A stretch of DNA of 64,000 bases from contig CBDBLV010000004.1 of the NCBI GenBank assembly GCA_965207225.1, positions 288,001 through 352,000 on the forward strand, given 5' to 3'. Origin of the DNA: Dehalococcoidia bacterium (GTDB lineage: Bacteria; Chloroflexota; Dehalococcoidia; Plut-88900). Below are positions 44,646 to 45,470 of this stretch, piece by piece (position 1 is the stretch's first letter; every line of letters starts with the position of its first letter). A program made the position numbers and the translations under genes. A model generated the notes under the pieces. The model did not search any database. It was given only the letters and a program-made list of their open reading frames with translations, and had not been told where the DNA came from.

Positions 44646-45470
44646 CAGGCTGCCGACTTCACACCTCGGCGCCCATCACTATGCAGGATCAAAGGAGTAC
44701 CATGAGCCGCATAAGCCTACACAGGCCTCGTCTCAACCGAGCGGCATCCCGCCGCCCGGCCCCCGGTACGCGCCTCCTCCCATTCTCCTTTCCCTTTCCA
44801 TACTCCGTCCTGCTCCCCAACACCCACTACAAGCGCTGCCCAAAGGCCCAGCGTCTCGGCCTTCGCAGCGATCAATCACCACCCCGCCCCCTTCAAGGAA
44901 GGTCCCCGGACAAATCACGGCACACCCTCTGGAGGGCCGTTGCCAGGTGAGCGCCCCACTCATAGGGCGCAACGGTTTCGCCCCGTCAGGCGACGCTAAG
45001 GAGCACGGTGTAATGCTGCTTCATCGGGCCATAGCGTCCTTTTTGGACTCCACCGTCGTCACCATCGGCAAGCTCCGATCTACGAACGGCGGTCACGGGT
45101 CCTCGCTCTCACCCCTTGGGGTGGCAGAGCACTTCCGGTGGGCGAGACTGCCCCAGAGCGAGAATTTCTCGTGTCTCGTCCGCGTCCCCTCGGAAGTATG
45201 GGGCTGTGATTCCACCGTCGTCACCATCGGCATGTTCCGGTCTACGAACGGCGGTCACGGGTCCATGCTCTCACCCCTTGGGGTGCTAGAGCGCTTCCGG
45301 TGGACGAGGCTGCCCCAGAGCGAGAATTTCTCGCGTCTCGTCCACATCCCCTCGGAAGTGTGGGGCTGTCGCAGAATCGACGCTGATGTGGACCGTCCCC
45401 GGGGGCGAACACCCCGCATCGGTACAGGCGTCGCCGACATCCTGCGCAAACCGTCCGGGACCTTCCACCC
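44646..45470 (+). ncRNA. Candidate large structured ncRNA, paralog B, with a tandemly duplicated core domain (ends approximate)
   Basis: Closing helix 44897-44911/45453-45466; structure-preserving substitutions between the tandem copies; G-U pairs indicate the + strand. Confidence 0.75.
45046..45369 (+). repeat. Direct tandem duplication, 2 x 162 bp
   Basis: 45046-45207 vs 45208-45369: 15 substitutions, no indels (hand alignment). Confidence 0.95.

Follow-up and report, generated by a model that had tools for sequence, protein, structure and literature searches.

A dispersed, structured repeat family related to a terminase-like gene in a genus of Dehalococcoidia

What kind of entity is the strongly folded, 570-base element at positions 44897-45466 of the window analyzed here, namely the whole 64,000-nucleotide (nt) stretch at positions 288,001 to 352,000 of contig CBDBLV010000004.1 from a Dehalococcoidia bacterium (assembly GCA_965207225.1)? 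A first-pass annotation, made from the letters of the window alone, had proposed a stand-alone gene for a new large non-coding RNA (ncRNA), with a tandemly duplicated domain enclosed by a long-range helix. The element is instead one of about 40 dispersed, genus-specific copies that are homologous to a terminase-like coding gene, a copy number that rules out a single-copy ncRNA gene. The reading we favor, with a probability that we put at a little under 0.6, is that a fragment of a coding gene was exapted into a self-promoted, structured-RNA repeat, of which 44897-45466 would be a frameshifted, two-domain member of the A subtype. Two results carry this reading: at the level of sequence, comparison of the copies shows selection on the base pairing of the + strand and not on the amino-acid (aa) sequence, and homology traces the family to the nuclease-domain (RNase-H-like) segment of a resident gene resembling those for terminase large subunits.

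Base pairing and copy number

The + strand of the element folds at -282.3 kcal/mol with RNAfold (z-score -7.16; 0/100 shuffled sequences fold as well); as the - strand of the body is also well folded (z-score -5.14), energy alone cannot choose the strand. The predicted closing helix, termed P1, is present in the minimum-free-energy (MFE) and centroid structures alike, and it encloses the two tandem copies of the domain (2.0 copies of a 162-nt period with 91% matches). A recount by hand returned the same 15 differences between these copies as had been claimed, at unit positions 3, 26, 28, 33, 58, 59, 79, 80, 86, 97, 102, 127, 137, 139, and 153. Seven of them (3, 33, 86, 97, 102, 127, and 137) fall in helices, where each exchanges a Watson-Crick for a G-U pair or the reverse, while the other eight fall in loops, bulges, or linkers. 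Such a consistent retention of pairs (7/7) is far from chance, because about one-sixth of random changes at paired sites keep the pair (about one-third if transitions dominate).

The same helices hold in homologs. We extended the first-pass fold to both domain copies and the 3' hairpins and assessed it on 15 full-length A-type homologs from 7 genomes, in which 92.1% of the cells of the alignment pair, as against 35-48% with the partners slid; RNAalifold agrees with this fold. Both sides have changed at 12 of the 143 pairs, the covariation score (0.124 versus 0.094 in shuffled alignments) is reached by none of 500 shuffles, and an equivalent pair of both domain copies is C-G in eight sequences and U-A in seven. 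Roughly half of the columns in the domain show no variation among these 15 copies.

The window element belongs to a large family. In the host genome (G000; 4.03 Mb in five contigs, C1 to C5, 92% complete), BLAST recovers four further copies of the A subtype of the window and 14 copies, 90-95% alike, of a shorter B-type element. The latter holds the third domain copy that the first-pass annotation had placed at 17951-18119, and which is recovered by both nhmmer and a covariance model (G000:C4:305950-306039, equivalent to 17950-18039 of the window). Further size classes of ~328, 350, 380-400, and 460 nt have the 15-base-pair (bp) closing helix and the flanks in common and differ in their interiors. 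The total of ~40 loci comprises 31 with P1 paired, as found by pairing of the arm motif, five of the A-type, and several divergent ones. A covariance model of the most widely common sub-domain (R1: 88 positions, 22 pairs, 76 copies) has 40 matches in G000 and 14-44 in each of the genomes of the genus (9/9), all of them from uncultured bacteria; it has none in three other genera of the same family and none in 145 other genomes of the class, the six genomes with a match among the 151 searched being all of the genus. Among the matches listed for the 17-nt arm motif, the domain accompanies none of the 37 loci of other taxa (best E 0.48) and 1/86 of the metagenomic and viral loci combined, this one (L296) being among the 80 from metagenomes. 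All six viral contigs with the motif among these matches lack the domain, on which ground phage cargo was rejected.

Across the 76 domain copies, which cover all subtypes, 89.2% of cells pair (39-57% with slid partners), both sides have changed at 10 of the 22 pairs (e.g., U-A in 42 versus A-U in 19 copies at one pair and G-C in 57 versus U-A in 7 at another), and the covariation score is likewise reached by 0/500 shuffles. On the + strand, G-U pairs are both common and conserved, one pair being U-G in 48 of 65 distinct sequences. Since conserved G-U pairs would be A-C mismatches on the other strand, the + strand is favored, and the promoters and terminator-like modules described below lie on this same strand. 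Selection on + strand pairing, which had been proposed from the two window copies, is hence borne out by the maintenance of pairs through compensatory and G-U changes in homologs, with the qualification that the copies are related and that one measure, given below, does not exceed shuffles.

The architecture is that of a composite interspersed repeat, with conserved end modules around one to three tandem inner modules in many dispersed copies. There is a single domain at G000:C2:254633, two at 44897-45466, and three, at a 162-nt spacing, in the genomes G005 and G006 of the genus; the 462-nt subtype corresponds to the 352-nt subtype with a second D1-D2 unit (D1 to D3 being the sub-helices of the domain), i.e., an independent duplication. 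The loop of the D2 hairpin reads CCCUCCGA, which is anti-Shine-Dalgarno-like, in the B (17950-18039 of the window), 352-nt, and 462-nt subtypes, whose leaders carry AAGGAGG; the D2 loop of the A subtype in the window differs (CUUG).

A known RNA family is ruled out by the Rfam search of the window, in keeping with the first-pass claim: the covariance models of Rfam 15 gave no match at the gathering score in the whole 64 kb, none at E<=1 in 17600-18400, and, at E<=10 in 44897-45466, only a chance-level row (whalefall-1, 13.5 bits, E 4.2).

The terminase-like parent and the A-type reading frame

The parent gene codes for a 462-aa protein (L008:649-2034, equivalent to G000:C1:233687-235075), in whose sequence we read motifs like Walker A and Walker B and, C-terminally, an RNase-H-like part. 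The gene has weak matches to PHROG families of the terminase large subunit (E 1.5e-4 and 7.8e-4), and a PDB sequence search with the protein returned no match. More than 3330 homologs with 56-58% identity occur in other Dehalococcoidia and Chloroflexota records, some of them carrying PF17289 (Terminase_6C). The reading frame of the element aligns with residues 194-343 of the 462-aa protein (BLASTP: 42% identity over 154 aa, E 4e-24), and this restricted homology indicates that the family descends from an internal piece of the terminase-like gene that was fused to a foreign promoter, Shine-Dalgarno (SD) sequence, and ATG. The likeness to the PF17289-type nuclease domain lies in this alignment of the A-type frame; the element differs from it in being a fragment, internally duplicated, with a foreign SD-ATG leader and with neither protein constraint nor a profile match of its own.

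The G000 terminase-like gene also carries both P1 arms in frame (1336-1351 and 1729-1743 of L008), which are set off from those of the elements by three differences (a compensatory base-pair change, an inserted pair that is likewise compensatory, and a bulge), and it matches R1 with 65.7 bits. The orthologous genes of two other genera code for a similar protein and have no arms, no D1 pairing, and no R1 match. Either the fold arose in the genus, within the gene, and the fragment spread afterwards, or an element later converted the gene.

The 462-aa gene is solitary, with no portal-type gene visible downstream within ~1 kb. A second terminase-like locus lies near G000:C5:241650-242075, each genome of the genus seems to hold one to four copies, and a six-frame search of the genus with an A-type frame met loci with frames of 490-570 aa, among them that of the 462-aa protein. 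In a neighboring genus, a terminase-like gene (L389, G010:C1:890836-892211) matches in two pieces with one TGA inside, and may be broken or recoded.

The first-pass annotation had named homologs that conserve a reading frame as evidence against a new ncRNA. Such evidence is found in part: most A-type copies do keep an SD-ATG and a stop-free frame, but the frame lacks protein constraint and is absent in the commonest subtype, so that the RNA reading stands in a modified form. The AAGGAG and ATG are invariant in 11/11 A-type leaders from 7 genomes and likewise in the 352- and 462-nt subtypes, and in three other species the frames from this ATG run through the whole element for 346, 357, and 391 aa. 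At ~91% nucleotide identity a pair of copies has 82% aa identity, and at ~75% another has 47%, values close to those of unconstrained codons and thus indicative of no constraint at the protein level. The invariant columns of domain copy 1 are spread evenly over codon positions 1, 2, and 3 (25, 29, and 29; hand count, 15 sequences), which also argues that the frame is not protein-constrained, as third positions would be much freer to vary in a protein under constraint. The frames extend beyond the body, across both its tail and the terminator-like module (492 aa in G000:C3, with the module at C3:316253-316390), have no family match among Pfam and PHROG profiles, and find two relatives among 5.8 billion proteins, gene callers almost never calling them. 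The B-type, the commonest and best conserved subtype, has 1-nt indels among its copies and no + strand open reading frame (ORF) of 40 aa (none of at least 40 aa lies inside the window member at 17865-18172 either), and it keeps the helices. The family thus has homology to a coding gene and, in the A subtype only, an open frame with a start signal, but no purifying selection on its amino acids. From an open frame without protein constraint in one subtype, and the frameless yet paired B-type, we conclude that what is selected across the family is the helices.

Several points weigh against the RNA reading. Among the sequencing runs listed as holding the stretch there is no RNA run, and the transcription of the elements and the ends and stability of their RNAs are all predicted. 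In the A-type homologs, the count of further pair types is not above that of shuffles (491/500), and pairing in the inner D1 hairpin is poorly maintained (65-73% of cells); in general, the shuffle controls overstate significance because the copies are related and partly homogenized. P1 is near-invariant in sequence and not just in pairing, with 12 of its 14 pairs showing no variation in these homologs, and an A-to-U change in it goes uncompensated in 7/45 B-type copies; its invariance fits a sequence-specific protein or a DNA-level site as well as an RNA helix. Furthermore, 140 of the 150 matches listed, from a total of 181 in the six-frame search of the genus, are stop-free, and four of the five A-type copies in G000 are intact, the window copy being the frameshifted one. 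By a rough estimate, several new stops per lineage are expected under neutrality. A pure RNA model does not account for a stop-free A-type frame with a conserved SD-ATG. It may be that the act of translating through the element is what matters, or else that the subtype has been repeatedly renewed from an open master copy.

The same frame could mean that the A-type elements are real, fast-evolving mini-genes, made of a duplicated fragment of the terminase nuclease (e.g., as a decoy or for interference with phage packaging), with the helices being secondary and the B-type and other subtypes decayed copies. Apart from the invariant start signals, the long open frames, the dearth of stops, and the homology to a conserved terminase-like protein, 6/9 A-type alignment indels are multiples of three, and GC is higher at the third codon positions of the frame in the window sequence (both by hand count). 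Nevertheless, we regard this explanation as unlikely: aa identity is at its neutral expectation and codon positions are equally conserved, the most numerous and best conserved subtype is frameless, there are only two such proteins among 5.8 billion and no profile matches, and the frames run through tail and terminator module alike. Moreover, the tandem duplication cuts across the domain fold of the parent, and both the window copy, split by a 1-nt gap at alignment column 50 into two pieces in different frames, and one copy of G008 are frameshifted.

Unit organization, genomic setting, and spread

The repeated unit is longer than the fold, as seen from 14 copies aligned with their flanks and 11 aligned leaders. 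In order, it comprises a promoter (-35 and -10 boxes, TG extension), a leader that has a strong SD, the P1-closed body, and a C/A-rich, G-poor tail (Table 1). The promoter predicted upstream of the window element is upheld, with the -10 region and a block 5' of it conserved in 11/11 leaders. A very abundant two-hairpin, terminator-like module often lies 5' of the promoter and in many loci 3' of the tail. Its covariance model (R2) has 146 matches in G000, ~130 of them full length, from 150 scored candidates; the first hairpin covaries (A-U to G-C and U-A to C-G), and a run rich in T or TC comes after it. The module is nearly always on the strand of the neighboring genes, and the window holds copies at 45625-45762 and 3746-3882. 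A same-strand module occurs within 450 nt downstream in 20 of the 38 loci examined: 12/12 with an A-type leader, which include the 44897-45466 locus, 6/10 of the ~365-400-nt subtypes, 2/14 of the B-type, and 0/2 of the 328-nt subtype.

Table 1. Features of the A-type locus, its flanks, and the B-type member in the window
Feature	Coordinates	Strand	Evidence or remark
Structured body closed by helix P1	44897-45466	+	Sequence, RNAfold, homolog alignment
P1 arms	44897-44911 and 45453-45466	+	Paired in RNAfold MFE and centroid
Domain copy 1 (sub-helices D1, D2, D3)	45046-45207	+	Repeat search, nhmmer, covariance model, homolog fold test
Domain copy 2	45208-45369	+	Repeat search, nhmmer, covariance model, homolog fold test
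Sigma-70-like promoter (TTTGCA, 18-nt spacer, TATAAT, TG extension)	44610-44639	+	10/12 consensus matches
Shine-Dalgarno AAGGAG; ATG	44692-44697; 44702-44704	+	Invariant columns, 11 leaders, 7 genomes
82-codon remnant of the A-type reading frame	44702-44950	+	Frameshift from 1-nt gap in first hairpin loop; no Pfam family
Two-hairpin terminator-like module	45625-45762	+	Model R2 match L238:2536-2673, 163.6 bits
First hairpin of this module, then T run (to 45700)	45650-45691		
Promoter-like site of the enoyl-CoA hydratase gene	45892-45920	+	Separate from the element
Enoyl-CoA hydratase gene (downstream flank)	45983-46783	+	
Dihydroxy-acid dehydratase-type gene (divergent flank)	42764-44458	-	
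Short hairpin repeat D5 (ATTCC, 13-nt loop, GGAAT)	44523-44559	+	Often 5' of promoter modules
B-type member: 15-bp P1 (17865-17879 with 18158-18172), one domain copy (D1-D2 17950-18039)	17865-18172	+	
Promoter-like site of the B-type member	17688-17715	+	Conserved among 14 B-type copies

The A-type leader with the module downstream, and the promoter-like site of the next gene, mark the window locus as a stand-alone unit of ~1.05 kb. For the B-type member, no terminator-like site was found on the + strand between it and the peroxidase gene at 18362, making read-through into the latter possible. A 558-aa ORF at 44443-46119 was not accepted as an ordinary gene: it matches no family of Pfam or PHROG, and it extends over the promoter, the terminator module, and the beginning of the gene that follows.

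Several smaller repeats were also observed in the window. D5 has copies at 3697-3733, 17402-17438, and 17564-17600 in addition to that in Table 1, and many further intergenic ones in the genome (BLAST). An 86-nt repeat (45779-45864 and 3873-3958, 88% alike), the end of which is a small tandem array of an 11-nt unit, precedes the promoter-like site of the enoyl-CoA hydratase gene, showing that promoter-bearing repeat modules exist without a structured body. The segments 25489-25911 and 27381-27803 are 71-74% alike at a spacing of 1892 nt and lie inside adjacent long - strand ORFs (24290-26137 and 26185-28098), which are probably tandem paralogous genes.

The distance from an element to the next gene is 100-1000 nt, and the two are not fused. 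At 22/22 loci tested, the downstream genes are co-oriented and functionally unrelated, a count that is biased, as it takes the nearest long same-strand ORF at 22 loci chosen from 29 (those left out being C5:128821, C5:1314200, C5:74030, C4:237110, C5:1307881, C5:1895380, and C1:395, the last at a contig end). The domains encoded include RNA polymerase beta, NusA, RecA, leucyl- and glutamyl/glutaminyl-tRNA synthetases, SecDF, fructose-bisphosphatase, MoaA-type radical SAM, amidohydrolases, and a katG-like peroxidase; a riboswitch-like regulon was rejected on account of this functional disparity. Elements occur upstream of the same single-copy genes in different species, e.g., at the peroxidase locus in G007 and G005, and single-copy flanks of the elements of other species map beside G000 elements, from which it follows that many loci predate the species. 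Orthologous loci are retained across species with flanks 79-93% identical. At some orthologous sites the subtype differs, the 328-nt one of G000 standing in place of the B-type of G007 and G008, and some sites filled in G001 and G002 are empty in G000. Further, copies from one species group share derived features across loci. Together with the subtype swaps, this suggests that copies convert or replace one another, with the conserved arms and flanks as the evident substrates. The contigs of four sequencing runs are short and end at the repeats, with the joints showing only other loci where adjacent repeat modules abut.

This traffic between sites could also be that of a feature acting at the DNA level, with the P1 arms as terminal inverted repeats or recombination sites, either of non-autonomous DNA resembling the miniature inverted-repeat class of transposable elements (MITEs) or of cassettes swapped among themselves and with the terminase-like gene. 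The 15-bp inverted arms are indeed near-invariant across species and the same in several size classes, subtype swaps and presence-absence differences are seen at orthologous sites, and the arms lie in frame in the G000 terminase-like gene and not in the outgroup genes. We nonetheless hold it to be improbable. The inverted repeats are not the ends of the unit, since homology extends ~150-200 nt upstream and ~50-100 nt downstream of the arms, and no direct repeat indicative of a target-site duplication surrounds the arms in 21 loci with flanks. Among the close arm matches in G000 there is no autonomous partner with the same ends and a transposase, nor any larger element with the arms, the exact arm matches being all paired within ~460 nt and the orphans all having two mismatches. 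A Y1/RAYT transposase has no match in the 92% complete genome, an empty leader-tail junction was not found with the single exact pattern tried, which gave only an unrelated match, and none of the six viral contigs with the arm motif has the domain. Finally, duplex DNA has no need of G-U pairs, which the covarying interior helices use. That the elements have no function and are decaying pseudogene fragments, scattered from the terminase-like gene by chance duplication, as the homology to a coding gene, the neutral aa divergence, and the frameshift in the window copy might suggest, is highly improbable in light of the invariance of about half of the domain columns, the P1 kept in nearly all copies, the compensatory maintenance of pairing, the promoter and leader kept by each copy, and the retention of loci at orthologous sites.

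As for specific routes of spread, a REP/RAYT mechanism was rejected on account of PF01797 having no match in G000, the control search being positive in 6/14 known genomes. Retro-copying was likewise set aside, as the four reverse-transcriptase genes lie elsewhere and the copies include their own promoters. These genes (G000:C2:158087-158773, C5:1548409-1549095, C5:1553608-1554405, and C5:1671488-1672288) do not stand beside any element, and two of the four match the family identically (586-aa frames). An IS481-type transposase gene with rve and HTH domains (L225, G000:C1:39217-40344) lies 307 nt downstream of the element at C1:38514-38916, outside its arms.

Returning to the exapted structured-RNA repeat, we propose that the elements might be transcribed from their own promoters as stable structured RNAs. 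Those with a terminator module would yield a stand-alone RNA, of ~1 kb at the 44897-45466 locus, and those without it, as most of the B-type, would form the long 5' leader of the gene that follows in the same orientation. In the A subtype, a ribosome might load at the conserved SD-ATG and read the stop-free, unconstrained frame into the fold. The copies could be kept alike and exchanged via recombination between the conserved P1 arms and flanks. Candidate roles for the RNAs are the stabilizing or insulating of transcripts, protein binding, and antitermination.

Relationship to known repeats and implications

In size range and multi-helix architecture, the elements resemble large ncRNAs of Rfam such as OLE, GOLLD, ROOL, HEARO, and raiA; however, no Rfam 15 model matches them, and those RNAs are not known to derive from a host coding gene or to occur in ~40 near-identical copies with promoter modules. 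The closest kind is the structured interspersed repeat, relative to which the origin from a coding gene is unusual; no description of this repeat family or of terminase-derived repeats was found in the open-access library searched. Repeats of this kind can be small, bcr1 of the Bacillus cereus group being ~155 bp.

The REP2 repeats of Neisseria, which are 120-150 bp long, carry a promoter, a ribosome-binding site, an ATG, and stem-loops upstream of ~14-26 genes (PMC3184786). They are similar in being intergenic repeats with expression signals in 20-26 copies, but they have no closing long-range helix or tandem internal domains and are not reported to have a coding-gene origin (PMC3184786), whereas the present elements span 300-650 nt, have multi-domain folds, and lie 100-1000 nt from the next gene. 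The pneumococcal BOX elements have the end modules boxA and boxC around a variable number of tandem boxB, and are strongly folded and transcribed (PMC3049150). With these the resemblance, which is one of architecture only and implies no sequence relation, extends to a composite repeat with conserved ends that is restricted to one species group and whose large copies may hold open frames; in contrast, the BOX modules measure tens of bases and lack a promoter-leader of their own, their mobilization by the transposase of an insertion sequence has been proposed, and no parent coding gene is known (PMC3049150). The bcr1 repeats are dispersed and transcribed, with compensatory changes that keep an RNA-level fold; they differ in having 5-bp flanking direct repeats and a non-conserved genomic distribution (PMC3184786), while the loci described here are often orthologous and have no flanking duplication. 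The family is thus set apart from REP2, BOX, and bcr1 by its size of 300-650 nt, its multi-domain architecture, its stable orthologous positions, and its origin from a coding gene with a frame that is still open in one subtype.

For genome annotation, the family carries two warnings, namely that long open frames over such loci are not ordinary genes, and that structure and covariation alone do not establish a lone new ncRNA gene. A wider scenario, which is speculative and which we hold to be unlikely, is that a phage-derived terminase gene gave rise to ~40 self-promoted, multi-domain RNAs per genome upstream of core genes (rpoB, nusA, recA, leuS, secDF, and that for the katG-like peroxidase), which might constitute a layer of RNA across the genus that controls genes or protects transcripts. 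The A-subtype frame, stop-free and indifferent to its sequence, would end inside the terminator as a non-stop message and be coupled to the fold; the effect would be tuned by how many domains are present, and RNA cassettes would be swapped between promoters through recombination at the P1 arms. Should the RNA reading be true, the family would clearly exemplify how a segment that codes for protein became a large family of structured RNAs, with its parent gene still there for comparison and with intermediate forms that may still load ribosomes, and these uncultured bacteria would have placed one promoter-plus-RNA module before dozens of unrelated housekeeping genes and kept it there across species.

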